Assembly: GCA_002422845.1 (NCBI GenBank)
Contig: DITM01000098.1
Location: forward strand, 21,465-45,464
Reading direction: 5' to 3'
Source: Candidatus Paracaedibacteraceae bacterium UBA6184
GTDB lineage: Bacteria; Pseudomonadota; Alphaproteobacteria; UBA6184
DNA: 24,000 nucleotides
Positions within the stretch are counted from its first letter, which is position 1; each line of letters begins with the position of its first letter. The translations under genes and the position numbers were made by a program. A model generated the notes under the pieces. The model was given only the letters and a program-made list of their open reading frames with translations, was not told the DNA's origin and made no database searches. Positions 1,617-15,652 of the stretch are shown one piece after another.

Positions 1617-2021
1617 ATGAAAATATTAATTTATATATCAGCCAGTGCTGTCTTTTTTATGCCGACAGTCTCTGCTTCAGAAAGCCTAATAGAACGTCAA
1701 AATGCGTGCGCTCAATTGGAACCAACAGGTCAACTCACACACCCTGAACTTCCCTTGGTATTGCAACCGTTCGTATGTCATGAAAACTTACCTGGACTCT
1801 CGAATAATGTGCTTCTGCACCTTATTCAGGCTCAGTACGACGAACATTGTTCCGTCATTGCAAGGTTATCCTATGTTAGTTTTAAAATTCTGGAGGCAGA
1901 ACCATTCTCAACCGAGGCAACTCAAGGGTCTCAAACATCAATAGCGTCAACCGTGCTTGTAGACCTCAGCCAAAACAGTAGTCTGGATTCTTTGCCTCCA
2001 ACAGTACCGTTTAAACCATAG
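1617..2021 (+). CDS. Hypothetical secreted protein (134 aa), convergent with the capsid gene
   Basis: N-terminal signal-peptide-like segment MKILIYISASAVFFMPTVSA|SES. AGGAAAG lies upstream of the ATG. No recognisable domain. The 3' end overlaps the relic capsid stop by 11 nt. Confidence 0.55.
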   Translation: MKILIYISASAVFFMPTVSASESLIERQNACAQLEPTGQLTHPELPLVLQPFVCHENLPGLSNNVLLHLIQAQYDEHCSVIARLSYVSFKILEAEPFSTEATQGSQTSIASTVLVDLSQNSSLDSLPPTVPFKP

Positions 2022-2083
2022 TCTTAACTTTCATTGCTTTTAATGGAGCTAAGGCACCCTGTACGATAGACATATCAGGTGTA

Positions 2084-3175
2084 TCACTGTCGTACAGGCA
2101 TCGGATTAAGTTCATCCAAATACCCTCTATTAACGCAGAAACTGGCGTTACCCCACCCCGTCCAACTATGCGAATACTCCGAATTCCCGACGTTATCGGG
2201 GGCCAATCTGCATGAACCCCCAATCGATGACCTGCAACAACGAATCGCTCTGCGGGTTGCGTAAAACTCTACATAGGGTTTTGCACTGTATGGATCACGC
2301 AAAATGGATAATTCCTGGCGATCCACGATTTGATATCCTTGTTCAAAGTTACCAAAGGCCACAGAAATGCTAGGGTTTGATGGATCCAAAGCAGGCATAT
2401 CATCAGAAATGATTACTGGATATCCTAACAATGTATTGGAAGCTTCACCGGCAAGGCCGCTTCCCGTATGCCACAACACATGACCCGTTGCAGGATCTTT
2501 GATTTGACGAAGCTTTGATTGAGCCGACCTGGACATTACCCAACATGCATTATGTAAGTATTCACTTTTGACGGAATCCAATGTCTTAAACAAGACCTCT
2601 AGCGCTGATTCATCATCCATGAACCCACCATTGACAAGCGTTGAAAACGTTTGAAGTTTCCCCCACGTTGCTACGTTAGTTCCTACATATTTCAAAAACC
2701 CTTTGGGTTGATTGACGCCATCACCTTGAATGAATCCTTTATTTTCAATGGCCGCCATTTGTGAGGCTATACGCCCCATCAACCAATCTTCAATTGGGAT
2801 TTGAGCATCGTCAATTAAACGTTGGCTTAATCGTAATTTGGCATACAGTTCATGTACTCCGATACGTCGTTTTTCTAACTGAGATGGATCCGTTTCATTG
2901 CGGGTTCCTGTTTCTGTTACCCAACCGACATTGGGCGAATTGCGCTCAACAACGATATCTAAGCTATCGCTAGAAATGGTTGTGCTGGACGCCAATTGAC
3001 GCAAAGGGGACAAGGCATCCACCTTAGATTTTACTTGATCTCCAATCGCCGTAGGCATTACCAATCCGCCTTCAGCGCTTTCGCTGGTTAAGGACTTTGT
3101 TTCCCAGTTTACGGCTCCAGTTTGAACAAAGTTTTTGAATTCAGTTGTGGATTGATCATTAAGATATGGTGTCAT
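2084..3175 (-). CDS. HK97-family major capsid protein (GTA g5-like), probably damaged at both ends
   Basis: Start trimmed to MTPYLNDQ..., with AGGAG 7 nt upstream. The body carries typical HK97-fold capsid segments: FKNFVQTG...KSLTSESAEGGLVMP, ...GFLKY..., ...LGYPVIISDDMP..., ...FGNFEQGYQIVDRQELSILRDPYSAKPYVEFYATRR. After YATRR the frame runs into an atypical Cys/Trp-rich tail. A capsid-like C-terminus (..APLKAMKVKTMV*) sits in another frame at 2011-2065. Confidence 0.85.
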   Translation of the reverse strand: MTPYLNDQSTTEFKNFVQTGAVNWETKSLTSESAEGGLVMPTAIGDQVKSKVDALSPLRQLASSTTISSDSLDIVVERNSPNVGWVTETGTRNETDPSQLEKRRIGVHELYAKLRLSQRLIDDAQIPIEDWLMGRIASQMAAIENKGFIQGDGVNQPKGFLKYVGTNVATWGKLQTFSTLVNGGFMDDESALEVLFKTLDSVKSEYLHNACWVMSRSAQSKLRQIKDPATGHVLWHTGSGLAGEASNTLLGYPVIISDDMPALDPSNPSISVAFGNFEQGYQIVDRQELSILRDPYSAKPYVEFYATRRAIRCCRSSIGGSCRLAPDNVGNSEYSHSWTGWGNASFCVNRGYLDELNPMPVRQ

Positions 3176-3238
3176 ATTTGTTTCTCCTGTTATGAACATT
3201 GATATAGTTAAAAGAAAAGGTAAGATCAAATGGGCACT

Positions 3239-3350
3239 TGCCCTTCGGTCAAGTGACATTTTCACCCACCCACCCCGCAGGCCGTCGCAAGAGCTCCTAC
3301 GCCTGCTTCCCGCTAACGGCGTGCTTAACGCCCGCCGAAAGGTAGAATTT
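3239..3350. repeat. Copy c2 of the repeat family, with hairpin GCAGGC-N18-GCCTGC, lying in the capsid 5' leader
   Basis: cccttcggtcaagtgacattttcaCCCACCCACCCCGCAGGCcgtcgcaagagctcctacGCCTGC aligns to c1, c3 and c4. It produces the false N-terminal extension MKMSLDRRA... on the capsid ORF. Confidence 0.8.
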
Positions 3351-3355
3351 TGAAT

Positions 3356-3381
3356 AAAAAAAGCACCCCGAAGGGTGCTTT
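3356..3381 (-). terminator. Rho-independent terminator ending the secreted-protein operon (after ORF 3415..3867)
   Basis: Minus strand reads GCACCC-TTCG-GGGTGC followed by TTTTTTT. Confidence 0.8.
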
Positions 3382-3414
3382 GAATTGATTAGACGTGTTA
3401 CTTAGACACTCGTT

Positions 3415-3867
3415 TCATAGTTTGCTAACGTACTCCTCCACGTGCAAGATCAAAAAATAAGGACTTAATATATCTGCAAATGATAAAGGTAAATGGCTTA
3501 ACTCTTTTGCCTGACCGATCTGTTTATCTCGTTCAGCAACACGCGACCAAAATGCGGTTTCTTCTTGCTTCGTCAACACATGAAACTTGCCATTAAGGTC
3601 TCGTGTGTGCAAAAACATATGAATCTTTGCTGGTGAAAATGAGATTTTTCTGTCCTCCAATAAGGCTTCAAACACAAACTGAACCAGTGTCTGATTGTGT
3701 GCAGATTTCGGAATGTTAAGGCTAAATGCTCCCTCTTTTTCAGTATAAAACACAGGGATATGAATACATTTCAACTGAGTATACGATTGATCATCTGTTG
3801 TCAAATCTGAACTTGCGGAAACTATCATGCACAGCAACATCGATACTTTTAGAGCTAATTTGATCAT
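3415..3867 (-). CDS. Hypothetical secreted protein (150 aa), island gene F
   Basis: Signal-peptide-like MIKLALKVSMLLCMIVSA|SSD. The AGGTGA RBS lies inside the end of the upstream gene, with 3 nt between the upstream TAA and this ATG, so the two are translationally coupled. No recognisable domain. Confidence 0.65.
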   Translation of the reverse strand: MIKLALKVSMLLCMIVSASSDLTTDDQSYTQLKCIHIPVFYTEKEGAFSLNIPKSAHNQTLVQFVFEALLEDRKISFSPAKIHMFLHTRDLNGKFHVLTKQEETAFWSRVAERDKQIGQAKELSHLPLSFADILSPYFLILHVEEYVSKL

Positions 3868-3870
3868 GTA

Positions 3871-4386
3871 TTATTCACCTGTTTTTGACGGGTTGATTCT
3901 TGTGTGCAATGTGTAACTTCCATCCTCCATCAGATCTAGAAAATAGGCTGAAAAATTGATGTATTTTCCTCTCTCAACCGCCTTTTTAGGATACTCATTC
4001 GTCATCAATGCACACGTCGGAATACATGTACAAGACACGCCTTTTTCTGGTTTGTGTAATTTAGAACTAAGCACCTGAAGAGGTCTATTCAAAAGAAGAA
4101 AAGTCATTGTTTCAAATTTAGCGCCATTTAATTTCAAACTTGATATTAAACATCTTTTTATTACCAAAAATATCTCAACGTTGGAAGCAGACAATTTACA
4201 CTCAATTTGAAACACTGCTGGATTACTGTTATCCAACAAAACCATATTCTCATTAACTTTTAATTTAAACAGAAAGACCTTTTTTTGTGCAGACTCACGT
4301 GATTCAGCATGTAAGGTTATAGCTGTCTCAGAACCAACTACACATTTCATGGTCAATATAAGACTTAATATAAAGATAAATCTCAT
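3871..4386 (-). CDS. Hypothetical secreted protein (171 aa), island gene E
   Basis: Signal-peptide-like MRFIFILSLILTMKCVVG|SET. AAGGA lies 5 nt upstream of the ATG. Several Cys (CTCIPTC). No recognisable domain. Confidence 0.65.
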   Translation of the reverse strand: MRFIFILSLILTMKCVVGSETAITLHAESRESAQKKVFLFKLKVNENMVLLDNSNPAVFQIECKLSASNVEIFLVIKRCLISSLKLNGAKFETMTFLLLNRPLQVLSSKLHKPEKGVSCTCIPTCALMTNEYPKKAVERGKYINFSAYFLDLMEDGSYTLHTRINPSKTGE

Positions 4387-4420
4387 GATAATCCTTATTA
4401 TTATATATTAATGATGGTTA

Positions 4421-4906
4421 TCATCTACGTTGGCATTCACCTCCATCACATAAATACTCGCGATACTTTACCTCCACTAAATTAATTTCTAACGCTAGGT
4501 CTTTTAGCATTTCTAATTGATTTAACACCTCTGCAAATGGAGCCTGCCATAATCTCGCACACATATTTACGTCATCACGCGCTGAATCTTTTCTGATTAA
4601 TCGCAGTGAAGAACATTGCAAGTTAGATCTGAAATTTAATACGCCAACACGCTGAAATTTATGAATAAGATTTTCTACATTCGCTTCAATTATAGATTGA
4701 AGCGATTTGTCTGCGTATCTATTGTGTTCAAGGGCTAGAGTAAAACTATAGTACACGCTTAAGCATGCTTGATTACCATGATTGCAAACACAGTGCACTG
4801 GACTTCCGTTACTCACAAGTTTTACGTCCATATTCAACTGAATTGATCCACTCACCAGACTTACCCACATCAAGGCAAAAATACTTAATTTTAAAAGAAC
4901 TTTCAC
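4421..4906 (-). CDS. Hypothetical Cys-rich secreted protein (161 aa from GTG), island gene D
   Basis: GTG at 4906 has AAGGGA 7 nt upstream; the TTG at 4924 used by the track has no RBS. Signal-peptide-like MKVLLKLSIFALMWVSLVSG|SIQ. Eight Cys in the mature part (VHCVCNHGNQAC...YLCDGGEC). Confidence 0.6.
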   Translation of the reverse strand: MKVLLKLSIFALMWVSLVSGSIQLNMDVKLVSNGSPVHCVCNHGNQACLSVYYSFTLALEHNRYADKSLQSIIEANVENLIHKFQRVGVLNFRSNLQCSSLRLIRKDSARDDVNMCARLWQAPFAEVLNQLEMLKDLALEINLVEVKYREYLCDGGECQRR

Positions 4907-4939
4907 GTTGTTATCCCTTCTCAACTATAAATTGATTGA

Positions 4940-4968
4940 TTTGTATACATACTTACCCGAAAAGTCAA
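4940..4968 (-). promoter_or_regulatory. Putative sigma70-type promoter for island genes D-E-F
   Basis: Minus strand reads TTGACT (4968..4963), 17 nt, then TACAAA (4945..4940), about 30 nt upstream of the GTG start at 4906. Confidence 0.35.
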
Positions 4969-5037
4969 AATTTTTATCTTTAGAATAGACATCTTTTTAG
5001 TTTTCTCATTACCACTATGAATATTCAGTTAATTTCT

Positions 5038-5556
5038 CTATTTAAAAAGGTCTAGTTCTCTTTGTCGTAACCTATGGCCAACCGTATAAATAGAATCTGT
5101 TGACGTCTCAATACTCACGCGTAATATATTGCCATAAACGTGCTCAATTAAGTCATTCTTACTTAAGGTTAAAAGATCATATAAAATTGGGAAAACGACT
5201 GATTTTCCAGCCTCTACAGGACTTGCCATGCTTGATGTCATTTCACTTTCAACACGCGTCATTACGATTCCATCCTTCAACAATGGATCTATGCTAGCTT
5301 GAATAGTCTTAATCGAAGCTATTTTTAAATTGCCCGAACAAAAATCTAACAATATTCTCCTTAGGTTTTGATGTGTTAATCCTCTAACACTCACAATCAT
5401 CTCAAAGGGTTTACTCTCAAAACTCCCTGCGGACTGACCCGCCGGATAAATAAACTGACCATTAATTTCTAAAAAGACACTAAACGAAAGCTCTGTAATC
5501 TGTGATGCTGCATGAAGTTCATACATAACTAACCATAAAATTAAGAAAAAACGCAT
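5038..5556 (-). CDS. Hypothetical secreted protein (172 aa), island gene C
   Basis: ATG at 5556 with AAGGTGA upstream; the track's GTG start lies inside the RBS. Signal-peptide-like MRFFLILWLVMYELHA|ASQ. No recognisable domain. Confidence 0.65.
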   Translation of the reverse strand: MRFFLILWLVMYELHAASQITELSFSVFLEINGQFIYPAGQSAGSFESKPFEMIVSVRGLTHQNLRRILLDFCSGNLKIASIKTIQASIDPLLKDGIVMTRVESEMTSSMASPVEAGKSVVFPILYDLLTLSKNDLIEHVYGNILRVSIETSTDSIYTVGHRLRQRELDLFK

Positions 5557-5596
5557 CTTTATCACCTTATTTTTATTGTGTATTGCCTTAGCATAA

Positions 5597-5628
5597 AGAA
5601 AAAACCACCAAAAGGCGGTTCTTTTTTT
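5597..5628. terminator. Intrinsic terminator after island gene B (bidirectional in form)
   Basis: Minus strand: AACCGCC-TTTT-GGTGGTT (one G-U pair) followed by TTTTCTTT. The plus strand also ends in a T-run. Confidence 0.65.
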
Positions 5629-5643
5629 AATCGTTACCTTTTA

Positions 5644-5947
5644 TCAAGGAAACGTATAGCGTTTCTCTTGACCACAATTACTTTTATCGATCACATCTAC
5701 AGGGATGTTCCCTAAGTAGGGTTTAACGTTATCCAAACGATAGCTCTTTAACACCCCTCTAGCGGTAAATGTTTCATTTTGGTGTATTATTTGTATTCCA
5801 AGCTCTGGGAACTCTTCTTTACTTCCTTCAAATTTAAGCACTACACTCAACCACCCACGTATTTGGGGTAACTCTGAAAGTCCTCAGCGGCGTTAACCTG
5901 AAATTGAAAGAACGCATTCAACGCGACCATACAAACAACAAGTGCAT
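5644..5947 (-). pseudogene. Probable frameshifted relic of another small secreted-protein gene, island gene B
   Basis: The 68-aa ORF 5644..5850 starts at TTG with no RBS or signal peptide. Upstream, two other frames read MHLLFVWSR* and LNAFFQFQVNAAEDFQSYPKYVGG*. Joined by two 1-nt shifts these give a signal-peptide-like N-terminus (..FQFQVNA|AED) continuous with the ORF. Confidence 0.35.
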
Positions 5948-6018
5948 ACGTCTTCTCCACCAACAATTGAAGGTAGAAGAAACACATCTGCACACATTAA
6001 GTCAAGCATTCTCTCAAT

Positions 6019-6044
6019 AAAAAAAGGGAAGATCACTCTTCCCC
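6019..6044 (-). terminator. Rho-independent terminator after island gene A
   Basis: Minus strand reads GGGAAGA-GTGA-TCTTCCC followed by TTTTTTT. Confidence 0.75.
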
Positions 6045-6069
6045 TTGATACAGTACTTAGAAAATATTC

Positions 6070-6585
6070 TTATTCGCCCTTAGGAGATTTCAATGGTGAT
6101 ATCTCTCCCTCCAAAAGTGGTGGTGTTGGTGTAAGCATTGGCGAACGACCACTATCCATTATAATATCAATCACAGGTATCTCTCCTACACCCTTGAATA
6201 TAGTGGCTAATGTGATCAAACTTCCATCCTCTTCACTAACACTTTCCCTCATAACCTCTACACCATTCCACATTAAGCGATGAGCCGAAGGAATTCTTAA
6301 AGAACTCAGTAATTCAGATTTAAAATCTTCCACTCTTGTCGTGCTACTAACAGGAATCGTAGAGACGATATAAGTACCTCCATCAGCTCCTAATCTCGCA
6401 ACTTTAACAGCTGGGGGAAACTCTATTGCAGGCTGCGTATTTCCATAAACCTCGCCATTGCACATTCCACCATTCGTTGCGCCATGATGCCCTTGGGGAG
6501 ATAAAGCCTCGTCTGCAACATTATGGCTAGCTGACACCTGTGAAACGACTCCAAACACACACATAGTATATAAAAATTTATTCAT
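6070..6585 (-). CDS. Hypothetical secreted protein (171 aa) with a possible ubiquitin-like beta-grasp core and a Pro-rich tail, island gene A
   Basis: Signal-peptide-like MNKFLYTMCVFGVVSQVSA|SHN. GGAG lies 7 nt upstream of the ATG. The core VKVARLGADGGTYIVSTIPVSSTTRVEDFKSELLSSLRIPSAHRLMWNGVEV...GSLITLATIFKGVG aligns by eye to the ubiquitin pattern (see findings). Confidence 0.65.
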   Translation of the reverse strand: MNKFLYTMCVFGVVSQVSASHNVADEALSPQGHHGATNGGMCNGEVYGNTQPAIEFPPAVKVARLGADGGTYIVSTIPVSSTTRVEDFKSELLSSLRIPSAHRLMWNGVEVMRESVSEEDGSLITLATIFKGVGEIPVIDIIMDSGRSPMLTPTPPLLEGEISPLKSPKGE

Positions 6586-6683
6586 TATTCTTCTCCGTGT
6601 TAACTTATTTTTAAGACTATTATTTATAATAGAATATACTCTGTTTATCTAGATAAAAAACATAGATACGAAAGATCATAGTC

Positions 6684-7097
6684 TTATTTCTTAAAAATGC
6701 GTGCTTTTGCATGGGCAGGAAATGTCACAATCGATATTTCCTTTAAGGCGACTTTGTGTATTACACGACGAACATCTCCAACGCCTCGCACCGATTTTAA
6801 TGCTGTATACCCAATGGATAACCCTGTTAAACTGCCACATTGAATCAATTTAAAGGCCTCTTGTCCTATCTGAGTTTCCATACAAAGTTCCAAAGTCACC
6901 CGCAATCCCAACTTGTCTTCGGCTGCAACCACAACTCTACCCATGGGAGTCGTTGGATAATGCTGCCACAATACAGGGATACCGATAATTTTATCTATCG
7001 AAAAAGCCCCTGGCATCATCACATCTTTTAATTGATCCGGCTCATGAAAGATACTGGCATATCCTTCGATCATCACTGTACGTACTTCATCTTGCAT
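6684..7097 (-). CDS. HK97-family prohead protease (GTA g4-like)
   Basis: 137 aa from ATG 7097, with AAGGAG 7 nt upstream. Family motifs: IEGYASIF, PVLWQHYPTTPMGRV (catalytic His region), GLSIGY (catalytic Ser region), LKEISIVTFPAHAKA. Directly downstream of the portal gene. Confidence 0.85.
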   Translation of the reverse strand: MQDEVRTVMIEGYASIFHEPDQLKDVMMPGAFSIDKIIGIPVLWQHYPTTPMGRVVVAAEDKLGLRVTLELCMETQIGQEAFKLIQCGSLTGLSIGYTALKSVRGVGDVRRVIHKVALKEISIVTFPAHAKARIFKK

Positions 7098-7107
7098 AAA
7101 AATCTCC

Positions 7108-7229
7108 TTTGCAGCATGGTGCTGCACCCATTAAATTACATCCGATTCATTCCGACACACGTTTCATAAAGCGACCTAGTCGGTAACGTCGCTATCGGAT
7201 CTAATCTATCGGATGCAACGTCGCGTTGC
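7108..7229. repeat. Repeat-family copy c5 filling the portal-protease junction: variant hairpin GCAGCAtggTGCTGC (7111-7125), left-arm-like sequence, and an inverted consensus hairpin (7211-7229)
   Basis: gcacccattaaattacatccgattcattccgacacacg aligns to gcatccattaagttaaaatccgattcgtttcgagacatg (8722-8761). tatcggatctaatcta is identical at 7193-7208 and 13183-13198. ggatGCAACGtcgCGTTGC is the reverse complement of the family hairpin. Confidence 0.75.
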
Positions 7230-8346
7230 TTGGGCTGTATCCAAGAGCTTGACGCTTTTCATTTTCACTTAAGAACGATGCATCAGATAGCTTTCGCCAT
7301 GTTGCCTCACGTCGGGGAGCCAGCGCCGCAATGGCATCCACATCATAGGAAAACCTTAGATTCTCGTCATATTGCTTTGCTACAAACTGTGTAAATGCAT
7401 GCTGAAACCGTTCCAGTAAGAGTAAAATCGTATCTTCCCACAAATGGAATCTAGCCTCCTTATAGTTGGTATATGTCGCATCTCCTGGCACGCCAACCAA
7501 CATGGGTGGCACGCCAAACGCTTGAGAAACTTCACGTGCAGCAATGTGTTTTCCCTCAGAAAAATCAAGATCCTTTGGGCTTAACCCCAATTCTTTCCAT
7601 TCAACATCACCTTCCAATACCATGATGCGTCCCGCATTACCTTGCCCGGAATACACCTGCGTAATACTATCTCGAATGGATTGTTTTTGCTCATCCGTTA
7701 ATCCCCACCCATCCTCGGTGCCTTTCCAAATAAACACTCCTGATGGACGCCCCCCATTTTGTAACAATGCCAAATTATGGGTACTAACGGCGTTATGTTG
7801 ATCAATGGCCATCGCTGCAACTTCAATGGGGCTTAATCCATACCAATCATTCAACGGGTGGACGGATTTTAACTGAAATACGCACTCTGTTGGCAATCGA
7901 CACGTCGCCCCCTCCACGGTATAATCATAAGCGGCAACCTGCCCGTTTTCCGTAATCACTCTCACCCGATCGGGTCGCAAGGTCTTCAATCGTTGTGGAA
8001 TACCCTGAGAATCCCTGTCAAGATGCACAAATGCATTGCCCGATAATAGAAACGACGTCGCCAAGCTTTCTAAAAAAGAAGCCCCGGATTCCCCAGGGCT
8101 TGGATGTTGCAATAACTGTAATAATGGATGCGTAAATAACTCCGTATCCCCCTCATACAGCAACCACGGCACCGTCGCAATCCCACGCGCAATCATTGTC
8201 ACACATCGATAGACGATCACGTTTTTCTCATACCCTTCTTTTACTAAAGGAGTATATTGCCGAGATGTCCATTGCGCTTTTAATTGACTTTGCATCGTCA
8301 TTTGAGGGCGCGCCACTGTTTTTCGTCCAGTCATCCAATTCCACAT
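7201..8346 (-). CDS. HK97-family phage portal protein (GTA g3-like)
   Basis: 381 aa from ATG 8346, with AAGGAG 6 nt upstream. The length and blocks such as NVIVYRCV..IA, LL.HPSPG, LSGNAF, GLSPIE.A, LLQNGGRPSG, GLSPKDLDF and FGVPPMLVG are typical of HK97-type portals. Confidence 0.9.
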   Translation of the reverse strand: MWNWMTGRKTVARPQMTMQSQLKAQWTSRQYTPLVKEGYEKNVIVYRCVTMIARGIATVPWLLYEGDTELFTHPLLQLLQHPSPGESGASFLESLATSFLLSGNAFVHLDRDSQGIPQRLKTLRPDRVRVITENGQVAAYDYTVEGATCRLPTECVFQLKSVHPLNDWYGLSPIEVAAMAIDQHNAVSTHNLALLQNGGRPSGVFIWKGTEDGWGLTDEQKQSIRDSITQVYSGQGNAGRIMVLEGDVEWKELGLSPKDLDFSEGKHIAAREVSQAFGVPPMLVGVPGDATYTNYKEARFHLWEDTILLLLERFQHAFTQFVAKQYDENLRFSYDVDAIAALAPRREATWRKLSDASFLSENEKRQALGYSPSNATLHPID

Positions 8347-8387: not shown

Positions 8388-8420
8388 ACGACATAAGAAC
8401 TCAGCACGATTATTACCCAT

Positions 8421-8443
8421 AAAAAAAGCTCCCTTTCGGGAGC
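8421..8443 (-). terminator. Rho-independent terminator downstream of the small ORF 8516..8644
   Basis: Minus strand reads GCTCCC-GAAA-GGGAGC followed by TTTTTTT. Confidence 0.75.
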
Positions 8444-8515
8444 CGGAGGAGATAGTAATATGCATATTATATTTAATATATTACTGACTCATTTTAATAA
8501 GTCAATCTATTTTTT

Positions 8516-8644
8516 TTAATATTTTTCATTTTTTTCACAACTTGGTTGAAAAAGGCTTAAATCATGCGGTTTATAGATCGCAGACGTTAATAGTACGATA
8601 GTTCCAATCATCATTCCAACGATACATGTAAATAAAGGGTTCAT
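8516..8644 (-). CDS. Possible small single-pass membrane protein (42 aa)
   Basis: MNPLFTCIVGMMIGTIVLLTSAIYKPH..., with GGAG 6 nt upstream of ATG 8644 and a terminator downstream. The upstream part of the track ORF runs into the repeat. Too short to be confident. Confidence 0.3.
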   Translation of the reverse strand: MNPLFTCIVGMMIGTIVLLTSAIYKPHDLSLFQPSCEKNEKY

Positions 8645-8708
8645 TCTAATCTCCATCATATAGATGGTATATAGGGATAAAATTCCAAAGGTCAAGCAGC
8701 ATGACGCT

Positions 8709-8947
8709 GGCAACGTGACGTTGCATCCATTAAGTTAAAATCCGATTCGTTTCGAGACATGTAAGTTAAAATCCGATTCGTTTCGAGACATGTTCTTAAA
8801 AGCAAGCAGACAAGATCTAAATAGGCACGCTCCCTTTGGTCGCATGACAATGTTCAACCCGCCCACCCGGCAGACCGTCGCAAGGGCTCCTACGTCTGCC
8901 GATCCCTTTAAGTGCAGGTTCACCTCTGACAACATGCCGTTGCATCC
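8709..8947. repeat. Full copy c3 (239 bp) of the hairpin-bounded repeat element
   Basis: Bounded by GGCAACGtgaCGTTGCATCC (8709-8728) and gaCAACAtgcCGTTGCATCC (8928-8947) in direct orientation. Internal hairpin GGCAGAC-N18-GTCTGCC (8869-8900). About 90% identical by eye to 12940-13141 over the shared core. Confidence 0.9.
8731..8792. repeat. Perfect 31-bp tandem duplication inside copy c3
   Basis: taagttaaaatccgattcgtttcgagacatg occurs twice back to back (8731-8761 and 8762-8792). Copy c4 has one diverged unit. Confidence 0.95.
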
Positions 8948-9098
8948 GCCCCACCCATCCGACACATGTTATAAAAGCCCACTTCCGCATCTCTGGGCGG
9001 CTCATGCAATCATATTAATGTCTATAACGTATATAACTTGAAAATTAAACCGTTTTCAGATAATTTATTGTCATTCAACGAAGACATAAGGACTTACC

Positions 9099-10925: not shown

Positions 10926-11573
10926 TTATCGAATCTTTTCCTTAAAGTCTTTACCAACAAACACACGCATCGAATTTCCACGCTCTAATTCATAATGTTT
11001 GTTACGTTTCTCATGGTTTTTTTCAGATCGTGCAGCTGCAGACCGTTCATCAAACGCGGCAACTAACCGAGCAAGTGCTAATTTTTTATTCATATGTTGC
11101 GATCGCTCCTCTTGAGCAAATGCGGTAAGCCCCGTTGGACTATGAATCACGCGAACTGCACTGTCTGTTGTATTGACATGCTGACCTCCTGCTCCGGAAG
11201 CTCGCATCGTTTCAAATCTTAAGTCTGATATGTTAATGTCCTTATGAAATTCCAATGCCTCCAATACATTAACACCGACAAACCAATTTTTACGCTTGTG
11301 CGTTGGACGATACGGACTTTCACAGACCCACTGAACCGTTCCCTGCCATTGTTTCAAAAATAAAGGCAAACCAATCCCGTTGATACTTAACATTACAGAT
11401 TGATAGATCCCATCTTTTTCACCGGGCACCTTTTCTAAAACCTCAACTGTCAGATTCTGCTGAATTGCTTCTTTCAGAAGACACTCTAATACATGATTAA
11501 CGGCCAATTCGCATTCAGCAGATCCATGACCTGATGTAATTTGAACCCATCTCAATGTGTTATCTTGGCTCAT
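10926..11573 (-). CDS. prfH: Peptide chain release factor H (PrfH)
   Basis: 215 aa. Class-I RF GGQ domain (RASGAGGQHVNTTDSAVRVIHSPTG) but much shorter than RF1/RF2. The start overlaps the rtcB stop (ATGA), which is the canonical rtcB-prfH pairing. Confidence 0.85.
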   Translation of the reverse strand: MSQDNTLRWVQITSGHGSAECELAVNHVLECLLKEAIQQNLTVEVLEKVPGEKDGIYQSVMLSINGIGLPLFLKQWQGTVQWVCESPYRPTHKRKNWFVGVNVLEALEFHKDINISDLRFETMRASGAGGQHVNTTDSAVRVIHSPTGLTAFAQEERSQHMNKKLALARLVAAFDERSAAARSEKNHEKRNKHYELERGNSMRVFVGKDFKEKIR

Positions 11574-12697
11574 TTTCCCCTCCTCGTTTTATACGTAATC
11601 ACAGGTCTAAGAATCGCAATCACCTTAATGATCCCAACGGTTACAAGATCACCTATCACAGAATCAATTTTCTTATAAGCCTGGGGAGCCTCTTCAAATA
11701 TCAAATCTTTATCTTCACATATAACGCGACTTCCAAGATCAGTATGGGTAAAATCATCCATTCGAAATTTCGATAACTTAGACTTTGCATCCGTACGTTT
11801 CCACTTCCGTCCTGCTCCATGCGCCAATGAATACGCGTTTTCAACCTGAGATCCCGTTGGCATTACAAGGTAACTAAAACTTCCTCTAGATCCTGGAATC
11901 ACGACAAGCCCCTGATCAGCAGGCGTTGCACCTTTACGGTGCAGCCAATAGGATTCATTGTCTTCGCTGTACGGTTCAACGGTATTGTGAAAGACATCCA
12001 AAACCTGCGATCCCTCACCTTTTAAACAGCTTAGAAATCGATGTGCAATCAAGGCTCGGTTGGCACCTGCCCATTTCACTGCCATATTATGTTGCGTTAA
12101 ATAATCAATGGCTTCGGGTGAATTTTCCAACACTCCAGCGTGAGCATCCCTATGGTTTCGTAAAATGAATTCTCCCAAACCTCTAGACCCCGAATGCACT
12201 AATACATAAAAATGTTTTGTTGATAGATCTAAAGCTTCAAACACATCCTCATCCAGTACCGATTCAATTTTTTGCAATTCTGCAAAATGATTCCCTCCGC
12301 CAATCGTTCCCAGCGAATGATCAAACAAAGTTGATTCCAACTGATGACGTGACAACCATTCGGAAGTATCCCCTTCCCATGACTCATCCAAATTATCCAA
12401 TTTAGATACCCATGTATCCAATTTTAATTTATGAACGGGTAAATCTGTTTTCCACAGCCCCATTCCGCAACCAATATCATTCCCCACTAAGTGAGGATAT
12501 ATCCATGATTTAGACATAAAAGCTGCCCCAATCGGCGTCCCTCTACCGGGATGCAAATCGGGTAAGCCAACGACTTTTTTCATTCCTTTTAATGCAGCAG
12601 TTGTTTTAAGTTGTTGAATCGCTTCGTCTTCAATCCAAGTTTTTTCAGACGCAATGACAGTTACTGTTGCCCCTGACGTTTGTGTATAAGTGCACAT
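11570..12697 (-). CDS. rtcB: RtcB family RNA 3'-phosphate ligase (PrfH-associated RtcB2-type)
   Basis: 375 aa. Motifs NDIGCGMG, GGGNHFAE, HSGSRGLG, FHNTVE and AHGAGR (ligase His). Confidence 0.9.
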   Translation of the reverse strand: MCTYTQTSGATVTVIASEKTWIEDEAIQQLKTTAALKGMKKVVGLPDLHPGRGTPIGAAFMSKSWIYPHLVGNDIGCGMGLWKTDLPVHKLKLDTWVSKLDNLDESWEGDTSEWLSRHQLESTLFDHSLGTIGGGNHFAELQKIESVLDEDVFEALDLSTKHFYVLVHSGSRGLGEFILRNHRDAHAGVLENSPEAIDYLTQHNMAVKWAGANRALIAHRFLSCLKGEGSQVLDVFHNTVEPYSEDNESYWLHRKGATPADQGLVVIPGSRGSFSYLVMPTGSQVENAYSLAHGAGRKWKRTDAKSKLSKFRMDDFTHTDLGSRVICEDKDLIFEEAPQAYKKIDSVIGDLVTVGIIKVIAILRPVITYKTRRGK

Positions 12698-12939
12698 AAT
12701 GTTCTCTATAATTTATTGCAGAAAAATTGTGCTTAATTAATAAGCTATATAAATAGCGATGTGATTTAAGGTCTACGCGGGATTGAATTCTAAGCGATTG
12801 AGTGTCAAATGAAACTAACGTGGCATCAACAAAAAATTACAGTCCCACATATCCTTTGGGAAGTGATTTAAGGTGTTGCATGATAGACCTCATTTTTGTA
12901 TTGATTATGCATACTATCACACATACTATAATTTGTCAA

Positions 12940-13141
12940 GCAACGTGCCGTTGCATCCATTAAGTTGCATCCGATCAGTCCTGACACATGTTCATAAAAA
13001 GCAAGCAGATAAGATCTAAATAGGCACGCTCCCTTTGGTCGCATGACACTGTTCAACCCACCCACCCGGCAGACCGTCGCAAGGGCTCCTAAGTCTGCCG
13101 ATCCCTTTAAAGCGCAGGTTCGGCAACGTGCCGTTGCATCC
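12940..13141. repeat. Full copy c4 (202 bp) of the hairpin-bounded repeat element
   Basis: Bounded by GCAACGtgcCGTTGCATCC (12940-12958) and GGCAACGtgcCGTTGCATCC (13122-13141). Internal hairpin GGCAGAC-N18-GTCTGCC (13068-13099). Confidence 0.9.
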
Positions 13142-13296
13142 ACCTACTTCACTCTGTTCTTAATAACGCGTCTCACATCATATCGGATCTAATCTAACCT
13201 AACGGGTCCAGGGATCATCCCTGGTCAAAAATATTCTACCAAACTCTTTTGAAAATAGTGTAAATTAAGCTTGATTGCAGTGATAAAGGAAATGGG

Positions 13297-14082
13297 ATGA
13301 GCTTTAAAGTTACAATTTTAGGATGCGGAGCCTCTGCAGGCGTTCCTGTCATTGGAAACCTTTGGGGGAATTGCGACCCTAAAAACCCAAAGAATCGCCG
13401 CACTCGATCCTCTATTTTTATTGAATATGACGCAACCAGATTGTTGGTGGATACCAGCCCGGATATGCGGCAACAACTGCTCGACAACGACATTTCAAAT
13501 TTTGATGCTATTTTCTATACCCATGAACATGCTGACCATACCCATGGCATCGATGATTTACGACTCATTTATTATCTTAATAATCAAAAATCAATTCCTG
13601 TGTATACCGACGAACGCTGTATGAACGAACTTCAACAACGGTTCCCTTATTTATTTGGGATTGGACAGAATGCTGCCACCCCAAAGGATTTTAATGCATT
13701 TCTTGAACCGCACCTTATTGACCTATCGCCACTCACCATTGGGGATATTCAGTTAAAGCCGTTCTTGCAAGATCATGGAACTATTACTACTTTAGGATTC
13801 AGGATTGATGATTTTGCCTATTCAACGGATGCCGTAAATCTGGATGATATTGCGTTCAAAGCATTAGAAGGCGTTGACATATGGGTGGTCGATTGCCTAC
13901 GCATGACCCCATCAAATGTTCATGCTCATTTAGATAAAACCCTAGAATGGATTGATCGCGTAAAACCAAGGCAAGCGTATTTTACTCAAATGAGTAAAGA
14001 TCTCGATTACGATACACTCTGTAAACAACTTCCCGATCACATTCGCCCAGCTTATGATGGTCTGGTAATTAACATTCGTTAA
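13297..14082 (+). CDS. MBL-fold metallo-hydrolase (PhnP-like)
   Basis: 261 aa. HxHxDH motif (YTHEHADHTHGIDDL). Glycine-rich N-terminus ILGCGASAGVP. Confidence 0.85.
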   Translation: MSFKVTILGCGASAGVPVIGNLWGNCDPKNPKNRRTRSSIFIEYDATRLLVDTSPDMRQQLLDNDISNFDAIFYTHEHADHTHGIDDLRLIYYLNNQKSIPVYTDERCMNELQQRFPYLFGIGQNAATPKDFNAFLEPHLIDLSPLTIGDIQLKPFLQDHGTITTLGFRIDDFAYSTDAVNLDDIAFKALEGVDIWVVDCLRMTPSNVHAHLDKTLEWIDRVKPRQAYFTQMSKDLDYDTLCKQLPDHIRPAYDGLVINIR

Positions 14083-14170
14083 ATTCACTGATAAGACTTG
14101 ATTTATCCCGCTTAAAAAGAAATAATCAACAAAATGGTATTAAGTCATCAAAAAAATAAGGATAGATAAA

Positions 14171-15652
14171 ATGGAATTGAGGTTTCAACCAGAGTTTAAA
14201 CCCACCGAAAATTCAGTAATTGTTGTGGGTATGTTTACCGATGGAACTATACAAACTCACGGCAATGATCTTAGCAAAGACATACTCAGCCTCATTACAA
14301 AGGCTGCTAAAGCAAAAGACTTTAAGGGAAAACCCAAAGACGTCATGGACATGATTGCGCCTGTTGATATTGCGTATAATCGTATCATCGTTATCGGATT
14401 GGGTGAAAAAGAAAAGCTCACTGATTATGAACTCCAAACTATTGGTGGAGCCTTAGCTTCGTCTTTATTAGGGGGTAAAGAAATCAATGGGTTTGCATTG
14501 TTTTCAGGGCTTACCCCTCGTCAAGCGGCATTGATTGCAACTGGGGCACGACTTCGCAGTTGGAGTTTCGATAAATATTTCACAACTGAAAAAACGAAAT
14601 CTAAGCGCGTTTTCAAAACACTTAACATCGCCTATGATAATGTTACTGAACTTGAAACAGCCTATGCTGATTTTGCAAGTGTAACTGACGGTGTCTTTTT
14701 AACCCGTGACGTTGTGTCAGAACTTCCAAACATTTTGTATCCAGAAACGTTTTGCGATCGTGCAAAAGAACTTCGTCAGTTAGGGGTTGAAATTGAAATC
14801 CTTGGCGAAGATGAAATGCAAGAACTAGGAATGAACTCTCTATTGGCCGTGGGTCAAGGCAGTGTGCGTGAATCAAAACTTTGCGTGATGCGCTGGAATG
14901 GCGGAAAATCAGGCGAGGCTCCAGTTGCCTTTGTGGGTAAAGGCGTTACCTTTGACACGGGCGGAATCAGTATTAAACCCGCTGATCGCATGCACGATAT
15001 GAAATACGACATGGCAGGTGCCGGCGTTGTCCTTGGGCTGATGAAAGCTTTGGCCAGCCGAAAAGCAAACGTCAATGTGGTTGGCGTTGCGGGTCTTGCT
15101 GAAAACATGCCGTCAGGAAACGCTCAACGCCCCGGCGATGTTTGGGTCAGCATGTCTGGACAAACCATTGAATGTCAAAACACCGATGCCGAAGGCCGCA
15201 TGGTATTAGCCGATGCATTGTGGTATACACAAGATCGCTTTAAACCTCAATTTATGATCGATCTTGCCACGTTAACCGGTGCGATTGTTGTTGCCCTTGG
15301 TCAAGAACACGCTGGATTATTCTCGAACAATGACGAACTGGCAGAACGCCTATTCAAAATTGGTCAAACAAGTGGCGAAAAATTATGGCGCATGCCATTG
15401 GGTGATGCCTATGACAAAGCCATCAACTCAACGGTTGCTGATATGAAAAACGTTGGTGACTCTGGCACGGGTGGCAGCATCACCGCCGCTCAATTCTTAC
15501 AACGGTTTGTGAACGATCATCCATGGGCTCACTTAGATATCGCCGGCATGGCTTGGGCAAACAAAGCCCGTGATCTATGCTCTGCCGGCGCCTCTGGATT
15601 CGGGGTTCGTTTATTGGATCAACTGGTTGCAACGTATTACGAAGGCAAATAA
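14171..15652 (+). CDS. pepA: Leucyl aminopeptidase (M17)
   Basis: 493 aa. Motifs VGKGVTFDTGGISIKP and NTDAEGRMVLADAL. Confidence 0.95.
   Translation: MELRFQPEFKPTENSVIVVGMFTDGTIQTHGNDLSKDILSLITKAAKAKDFKGKPKDVMDMIAPVDIAYNRIIVIGLGEKEKLTDYELQTIGGALASSLLGGKEINGFALFSGLTPRQAALIATGARLRSWSFDKYFTTEKTKSKRVFKTLNIAYDNVTELETAYADFASVTDGVFLTRDVVSELPNILYPETFCDRAKELRQLGVEIEILGEDEMQELGMNSLLAVGQGSVRESKLCVMRWNGGKSGEAPVAFVGKGVTFDTGGISIKPADRMHDMKYDMAGAGVVLGLMKALASRKANVNVVGVAGLAENMPSGNAQRPGDVWVSMSGQTIECQNTDAEGRMVLADALWYTQDRFKPQFMIDLATLTGAIVVALGQEHAGLFSNNDELAERLFKIGQTSGEKLWRMPLGDAYDKAINSTVADMKNVGDSGTGGSITAAQFLQRFVNDHPWAHLDIAGMAWANKARDLCSAGASGFGVRLLDQLVATYYEGK

Follow-up and report, generated by a model that had tools for sequence, protein, structure and literature searches.

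A probable moron-like cassette of putatively exported proteins between the protease and capsid genes of a gene transfer agent-like cluster in a Bodo endosymbiont

The DNA analysed here, a 24,000-nt stretch of contig DITM01000098.1 (hereafter the window), comes from a Paracaedibacteraceae genome of the genus UBA6184/'Ca. Bodocaedibacter', endosymbionts of Bodo flagellates, and carries a phage-type head module that is split by an island of small genes (3355-6683, minus strand). Ca. Bodocaedibacter vickermanii, a cytoplasmic symbiont of Bodo saltans, belongs to genus UBA6184 in GTDB together with newer Bodo symbionts of ~42% GC (PMC12999062). Portal relatives among species-representative genomes are Holosporales, namely Finniella, Caedibacter, Paracaedibacter-like metagenome-assembled genomes and 'Alphaproteobacteria bacterium CMAR1'. 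The head module, known here from its genes, has the order of an RcGTA/HK97-type cluster: the portal gene (7201-8346, minus strand; PF04860), a prohead serine protease (6684-7097, start alternatively at 7127, minus strand; Peptidase_S78, PF04586, Pfam E 9.6e-27), an HK97-fold major capsid gene (2084-3175, minus strand; Phage_capsid, PF05065, Pfam E 4.5e-67) and a gp6-like connector. The carrier is a chromosomal gene transfer agent (GTA)-like head-tail cluster with the conserved neighbours RecR/YbaB, in which no integrase or lysogeny genes were seen.

The island lies between the protease, its upstream border, and the capsid gene, its downstream border, both placed by Pfam, and contains the six minus-strand genes (five intact, one relic) of the first-pass annotation, with the capsid start confirmed at 3175. 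A conserved non-coding block (6586-6663), aligned in five close lineages, precedes gene A and holds a candidate promoter/operator and a GGAG ribosome-binding site; this ~75-nt segment is better conserved than the A coding sequence (81% vs 67% identity by blastn). Gene A (6070-6585) encodes a 171-aa protein with a signal peptide at nt 6526-6585 and a predicted ubiquitin-like domain at nt 6151-6423, and ends in a hairpin plus T-run terminator (6016-6046, hairpin 6046-6023). The next gene, B (5644-5960), is a pseudogene consisting of a 68-aa open reading frame (ORF) at 5644-5850 and an upstream remnant that was recognised by three-frame translation against the B genes of L070 and L076 (L-numbers label the related loci compared). 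Its signal-peptide-like start (…ALVVCMVALNAFFQFQVNAAED…) lies in a frame other than that of the 68-aa ORF and its start codon has been lost, in keeping with its first description as a frameshifted relic. A second hairpin and T-run terminator (5599-5624), kept in relatives, is followed by the conserved leader of gene C (5038-5556), which encodes a 172-aa protein with a signal peptide and an orphan domain. A sigma-70-like promoter candidate for D-E-F (4940-4968; TTGACT at 4968-4963, 17 nt, TACAAA at 4945-4940) stands before gene D (4421-4906; 161 aa, GTG start), which encodes a signal peptide and three invariant cysteines in a CVCxHG ... C motif. Genes E (3871-4386, 171 aa) and F (3415-3867, 150 aa) encode signal-peptide-like N-termini, and the E stop and the F start are separated by 3 nt in the same frame. 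A strong hairpin and T-run terminator (3360-3381), kept in five lineages, closes the island, beyond which lies a conserved capsid leader of ~170 nt (3176-3355).

None of the island proteins has a Pfam or PHROG match above chance, and scans of viral contigs for families A and C yielded just one fragment, itself of this cluster type; both results speak against phage structural proteins. All-against-all blastp and phmmer searches and profile-profile comparisons of A, C, D, E and F agree with the earlier reading that the proteins are dissimilar (the best pair, F vs A, reaches E 0.02), and paralogy among them was rejected on these grounds. Sequence searches of the PDB with C, D, E and F were empty. 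These four remain, by sequence, orphans apparently unlinked to each other, to A or to solved structures.

What the five intact proteins share is a putative export signal. Each has at its N-terminus a Sec-type (signal peptidase I) signal peptide under a heuristic that asks for a basic n-region, a hydrophobic h-region of 10-12 residues and small residues at -3/-1, with no later membrane helix; 2 of the 21 other window genes are positive by the same rule, and the clean leaders first read by eye are thereby upheld. Three proteins of Ca. B. vickermanii, CPBP_00158 (166 aa), CPBP_00159 (177 aa) and CPBP_00160 (167 aa), are SignalP 4.1 positive without membrane helices and stand among 105 uncharacterised secretory-signal proteins, with orthologues only in UBA6184 (Midha et al. 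2021, PMC8163844). Their genes lie between portal CPBP_00156 and capsid CPBP_00163, and in both position and length they correspond to the orthologues of A, C and D (lengths as in L075); the matching gene lengths indicate that L075 is probably from Ca. B. vickermanii, in which an annotated homologue of protein C is present. The presumed orthologues of A, C and D have, then, already been listed as anonymous SignalP-positive proteins, in a source whose available text and supplements are silent on their location in a phage-like cluster, their fold and their evolutionary pattern (PMC8163844). For E and F the signal-peptide call is that of the heuristic, and CPBP_00161/162 are at most candidate E/F orthologues. 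Ca. B. vickermanii, living in the host cytoplasm, has Sec, type VI secretion (T6SS) and many lineage-specific SignalP proteins (PMC8163844). The three invariant cysteines of D fit an oxidising compartment.

The regulatory anatomy of the island sets it apart from the head genes. Terminator-like sites with a hairpin and T-run were found after A, B and F, as first proposed for A, the B relic and the island end, and the region as a whole contains 13 such sites vs 5.9 expected. With a conserved capsid leader following the final terminator, the island is, as far as such elements can be read from sequence, made up of small, insulated units, and transcription of the capsid gene would have to start anew or come from read-through. 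The proposed TTGACT-17-TACAAA promoter fares differently by scale of comparison. In a promoter scan within the window alone, promoter-like sites occur at the chance rate and this one is not separable from chance; across five lineages, however, TTGACT before D is invariant, the 15-17 nt after it are variable, and conservation resumes in a TATA(A/C)A-type block and in the leader as far as the ribosome-binding site, a footprint that sustains the candidate. Base composition also deviates. GC is 0.364 in the island vs 0.427 in the rest of the window, every other 3.3-kb window lying at 0.406-0.443, and GC at third codon positions is 0.325 vs 0.380; the dip suggested by hand counts is real but smaller than those counts had implied.

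Comparison with related loci identifies the island as an insertion. Protease and capsid genes were located in 69 loci. In ~40 Holosporales loci the two matches are 230-450 nt apart, so that the genes are adjacent, vs 3.4 kb in the window, and the island is therefore an insertion relative to the common arrangement, as the first-pass annotation had supposed in calling the module split. The arrangement was not seen in those ~40 related clusters and is in that sense no standard part of related head modules, though it is clade-wide in the Bodocaedibacter relatives. A, B, C, D and E are present in L070-L072 (portal 96% identical), and an orthologous island occurs also in L073 and L075. L076 has A, B, C, D and F and has lost E; L082 has A, C and E; L083 (portal 72%) has A, an F-like gene and one further gene; L081 and L084 have A and then a C-like gene; L078 has A and one gene, then the capsid; and L005, from CMAR1 (portal 70%), has A and about eight other small signal-peptide genes. 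Gene A directly follows the protease wherever a contig shows both (L005, L070-L073, L076 and L081-L084) and stands upstream of the capsid in L078; in the short contigs L074, L075 and L080 its neighbour is missing or unidentified. Homologues of C, D, E and F follow A in conserved order across the clade, those of F being found in L076 and L083. Because the same families occupy the same slot in the same order in every relative examined, down to ~70% portal identity, the cassette is old and not recent foreign DNA, inherited throughout the Bodocaedibacter clade, with family A reaching lineages at ~70% portal identity.

Two individual loci depart from this pattern in detail. The CMAR1 island (L005, 11753-16822) is larger, at 5.4 kb, with ~nine small genes that each have a signal-peptide-like start, among which the second alone can be recognised as a homologue of gene A of the window. 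In L070 (2195-2653), two ORFs of 47 and 99 aa make up an F-like sequence, the longer one corresponding to F's C-terminal half. This sequence sits between C and D instead of ahead of the capsid, so that the island genes of L070, whose C, D and E alleles are also discordant, have changed order.

The island genes evolve far faster than the genes that flank them. Within the clade, identity is 90-96% for the portal and 91-98% for the capsid, vs 36-65% for A, 50-73% for C and 37-70% for D; E is the fastest-evolving member, with 30% identity to its L070 orthologue. Synonymous divergence (dS) from L076 is similar for all genes (0.46-1.07), and the ratio of nonsynonymous to synonymous divergence (dN/dS) in the same comparison is 0.03 for the capsid, 0.05 for the portal and 0.19 for the protease, vs 0.42 for A, 0.21 for C, 0.35 for D and 0.30 for F. 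Over all comparisons, the island genes lie at 0.2-0.66, always <1, and the flanks at 0.03-0.19; C is the most constrained island protein (0.21-0.33). With dS similar and dN/dS higher, the island genes are therefore under purifying selection 4-14 times weaker than that on portal and capsid, and the original suggestion of fast-evolving DNA holds. Adjacent genes also differ in genealogy. Relative to L070/L071, dS is 0.19-0.25 for capsid and portal, 0.50 for the protease, 0.59 for A and ~1.0 for C, D and E; by identity, the portal, capsid and A of the window pair with L070, and C and D pair with L076/L073. This discordance indicates allele replacement inside the island, with breakpoints that we infer, from few sequences, to lie near B/C and near the capsid leader.

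Of the island proteins, A offers a structural lead. It consists of a signal peptide (residues 1-20), an SPxGxHG motif, a domain at residues ~55-145, a D..RSP motif and a Pro/Ser/acidic tail, the motifs being conserved in the family. A profile search of 1.84 billion representative proteins returned only 18 members, and those examined lie directly after the protease wherever the contig is long enough. An AlphaFold2 model built from four orthologues has a mean predicted local distance difference test (pLDDT) score of 57.7 overall and 70-78 at residues 55-145, with the elements E59-65, E72-78, H85-95, E103-106, H126-129 and E138-142 in the order beta-beta-alpha-beta-beta-(short helix)-beta. Foldseek comparison of this model with the PDB gives 68 matches at E<=1e-3 (best E 7.5e-5), the top 50 of which are all ubiquitin, SUMO1, NEDD8, BAG6-UBL/UBL or Bacteroides fragilis ubiquitin (8hm2 among the matches), and target-normalised TM scores reach 0.67 for single-domain ubiquitin-fold targets. 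Nearly all matches among predicted viral structures are likewise ubiquitin-family, with no head-scaffold or decoration protein among them. Identity to any ubiquitin-like protein is 15-27% in the structural alignments.

Sequence comparisons of A point in the same direction below threshold. BAG6 UBL chains are the top four matches of the A-family profile in the PDB (E 0.04-0.07, sub-threshold), one family member scores 18.9 bits against Rad60-SLD (cut-off 23.8), and hhalign of 20 family members against ubiquitin/NEDD8/SUMO brings strand 2, helix 1 and strand 3 into register (E 1.2e-3, probability 19%). None of these 20 members has a C-terminal Gly-Gly, and A is therefore not filed as a conjugatable modifier; it is predicted, from the model, to be a ubiquitin-like beta-grasp domain protein. 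The first impression that the island proteins resemble no recognisable family is thus true at the level of sequence, but the AlphaFold and Foldseek results assign A a predicted ubiquitin-like fold. A by-eye impression of a ubiquitin-like strand/helix pattern in several of C-F, and of a strand-strand-helix-strand order in several CMAR1 proteins, was not confirmed, the model of C having no fold match.

Taken together, these features make it probable that the island is a moron-like cassette of exported proteins in an RcGTA/HK97-type head cluster, acting at the symbiont envelope or host interface and not in capsid assembly. Morons of lambdoid and HK97-like phages are extra genes (lambda bor and lom, for example) whose products are commonly exported envelope proteins, beneficial to the host cell and no part of the virion; they were reportedly described for HK97 and HK022 by Juhala, Hendrix and colleagues. 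The island resembles them in its extra genes between otherwise adjacent ones, its own terminators and promoter-like sites, the promoter footprint being conserved phylogenetically, and its deviant base composition, and the moron-like organisation first proposed is borne out to that extent by features seen in sequence. It differs from them in its carrier, apparently no prophage but a chromosomal, domesticated GTA-like cluster of an obligate endosymbiont, and in being multi-gene, old and diversifying in place. The cassette is divided into small units, namely A with its conserved upstream block and terminator, the B relic with its terminator, C, and D-E-F, which stands behind a conserved TTGACT-N17-TA(C/A)AAA site and is closed by a strong terminator. 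The island proteins would be exported by Sec and cleaved, acting outside the cytoplasm and hence, presumably, taking no part in capsid assembly; their site of action may be the symbiont envelope, or the host cytoplasm after release by vesicles or cell lysis. Should A meet host proteins, it would bind them as a ubiquitin-like module that cannot be conjugated. Homology arms for exchange of cassette alleles between related symbionts may be provided by the conserved portal and capsid genes on the two sides.

Several observations weigh against the moron-like interpretation. CPBP_00161/162, the next two genes by position in Ca. B. vickermanii, are absent from the published SignalP 4.1 table (PMC8163844), and Sec alone delivers proteins to the periplasm only, with no dedicated outer-membrane secretion route known for the island proteins. 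Confidence in the A model is only moderate, the sequence signals for A are all sub-threshold with no above-threshold match to a curated ubiquitin-family profile, and an AlphaFold2 model of C from an 8-sequence alignment (mean pLDDT 54.6) has no fold match. The dS values near 1 are close to saturation. Finally, family A keeps strictly to the protease-capsid slot, and its role could therefore be tied to the GTA itself.

This last point leads to the alternative that the exported proteins serve the GTA-like particle programme, as envelope or periplasmic factors for release, adsorption or exclusion under shared regulation with the head genes. In all lineages examined, family A occurs nowhere but immediately behind the S78 protease, the cassette has been inside the cluster since before the split at ~70% portal identity, and exclusion is the role of many signal-peptide-bearing phage morons. 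Such genes are lacking, however, from most Holosporales clusters of this type, and the island's own terminators and promoter-like sites insulate it from the head operon. The state of the head genes in the window argues in the same sense. Compared with L070 and L076, a ~400-nt deletion (window 2011-2260, junction near 2250) takes ~25 codons from the end of the capsid gene and ~113 from the start of the gene for the gp6-like head-tail connector (PF05135 in L076). Past the deletion the capsid ORF continues in a wrong frame, and the ORF at 2011-2223 is the C-terminal remnant of the connector. The truncated capsid gene (371-aa call) is also present in the independent metagenome assemblies L001 and L002, and the head module of the source genome is probably defective; capsid dN/dS across the clade is 0.02-0.05. 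The island genes stay intact in this genome, and on the whole service to the particle programme appears unlikely.

The same damage, together with the B pseudogene, the loss of E in L076, the fragmentation of F in L070, the very high protein divergence and the low GC, would be expected if the ORFs were decaying, non-functional filler in a degenerating prophage or GTA remnant. Against such decay, dN/dS is <1 in every comparison. Signal peptides, motifs, cysteines, promoter footprints and terminators are kept across lineages, and frames of 150-170 codons stay open in AT-rich DNA in many of them, which leaves decay an improbable account of the island.

Recent acquisition of the island as foreign DNA, transferred horizontally into the cluster, would explain a GC content 6 points under the backbone, the lack of homologues beyond a narrow group and a genealogy of C-E that is incongruent with the flanks. 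The GC dip, however, is shared by all orthologous islands and by the unrelated ones of other lineages, which relaxed constraint under AT-biased mutation explains better than a foreign origin does. Families, slot and order are shared across the clade, and neither an integrase, a transposase nor repeats flank the island. The foreign origin offered at first alongside rapid evolution is accordingly not upheld, and a recent transfer is very improbable.

That one or more island genes encode head scaffolding or decoration proteins is scarcely credible: the position is right, scaffold genes lying between portal/protease and capsid in many phages, and the protease of this clade lacks a C-terminal tail, but all the proteins carry signal peptides, none matches a PHROG or Pfam scaffold or decoration family, the fold predicted for A is ubiquitin-like, with viral-library matches almost all of that family and no head-scaffold or decoration protein among them, the genes are absent from ~40 related clusters, and their constraint is 4-14 times weaker than that of the capsid. 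As to the protease, in the island-bearing clade it ends 0-8 residues past a conserved FPAH motif (6684-6710; compared with L006-L067), whereas most Holosporales homologues have an extra amphipathic C-terminal tail of 25-39 aa. The idea that insertion of the island caused the loss of this tail was dropped, several island-free lineages being also tail-less.

Cargo at this junction is not peculiar to the Bodocaedibacter clade. Four further Holosporales lineages have unrelated genes between protease and capsid, mostly with signal-peptide-like starts: L019 (11754-16296), with small proteins that combine a signal peptide and a C-terminal helix and with two trypsin-like proteins, one with a Pfam match (Trypsin, E 1e-8) and the other recognised by eye; L034 (11733-16846), with coiled-coil and Pro-Asn-repeat proteins; L040, with cargo at the protease-capsid junction and between portal and protease (11104-12235 and 12778-14807); and L042, with a short insert. 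Unrelated cargo also occurs in L031 (1139-4691), at the protease-capsid or the portal-protease junction. The protease-capsid junction looks like a recurrent docking site, or insertion hot spot, for cargo. An extension of the moron-like interpretation, to be entertained only tentatively, is that the junction serves as a recurrent dock for exported-protein genes (at least four lineages, with unrelated cargo) whose alleles are swapped through the portal and capsid arms, with release of the cargo into the host cytoplasm perhaps coupled to a lytic GTA programme; in the Bodocaedibacter clade this cargo would start with a dedicated family of exported ubiquitin-like proteins that cannot be conjugated. 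If true, the GTA cluster would double as a platform that diversifies and delivers host-interaction factors.

GTA-type head clusters are known in protist endosymbionts of the Holosporaceae and Rickettsiales (George et al. 2022, PMC9254644). The present cluster resembles those in its portal, protease, capsid and connector genes, in host lifestyle and in the purifying selection on its head genes; unlike it, they are described, in the parts of that article available to us, without cargo genes in the head module, and the words 'insert', 'interrupt' and 'signal peptide' are not used in that article (PMC9254644). The nearest protein analogue of A is BfUbb of Bacteroides fragilis (PMC5705921, PMC11467351; PDB 8hm2), which likewise combines a signal sequence with a ubiquitin fold and acts outside the cytoplasm of its producer. 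BfUbb, in contrast, is a transferred near-copy of eukaryotic ubiquitin that kills competing strains, whereas the A family has 15-27% identity, extra motifs and a tie to the GTA cluster.

The retention of GTA head genes in reduced endosymbiont genomes still lacks an explanation (PMC9254644). In one clade, putatively exported proteins, one of them predicted to be ubiquitin-like, are also encoded within the GTA cluster, as a set that is old and diversifies rapidly. These proteins are concrete candidates for symbiont-host interface factors in the Bodo/Bodocaedibacter association, where host dependence is documented but unexplained, and they raise the testable idea that turnover of secreted-protein genes is linked to a domesticated phage structure. 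Should their role be one of mere housekeeping in the periplasm, what remains is a moron-type insertion of the ordinary kind.

One of the two signal-peptide-positive genes outside the island adjoins the capsid. This small gene (1617-2021, plus strand) lies on the opposite strand just past the connector gene, encodes 134 aa with the leader MKILIYISASAVFFMPTVSA|SE, and is kept in L070 and L076 at 50-69% identity. This divergence gives it the look of a further insertion into the cluster of a rapidly evolving gene for an exported protein.

At the other end of the head module, no terminase gene lies between ybaB and the portal (8395-9098), an interval of ~700 nt of repeat-rich non-coding DNA; the corresponding interval of L076 (3955-5462) has four short ORFs without a Pfam match. 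The absence of a terminase there fits the location of Holosporaceae terminase genes away from the main GTA cluster, as reported in the available parts of PMC9254644.

No RNA family was found in the window with Rfam. A G-rich repeat of ~80-130 nt is dispersed on the minus strand (763-844, 3228-3306, 8819-8899 and 13032-13066), with the pattern …GCAGGCGTAGGAGC.CTTGCGACGG.CTGCGGGGTGGGTGGGT.AAAATGTCACTTGACC.AAGGG…, and its copies are found upstream of portal, capsid, the next gene block and rtcB. Within the capsid leader, the copy (3228-3306) is ~90% conserved in L070, L076 and L082. Rfam gives no match for the repeat, and its capsid-leader copy folds no better than shuffled sequence. Related short repeats lie at 8709-8729 and 8928-8948, and a 31-nt tandem repeat lies at 8731-8792. 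The fourth copy is upstream of rtcB, so the repeat is not GTA-specific, and it could be a shared promoter/regulatory cassette or a REP/MITE-like element.

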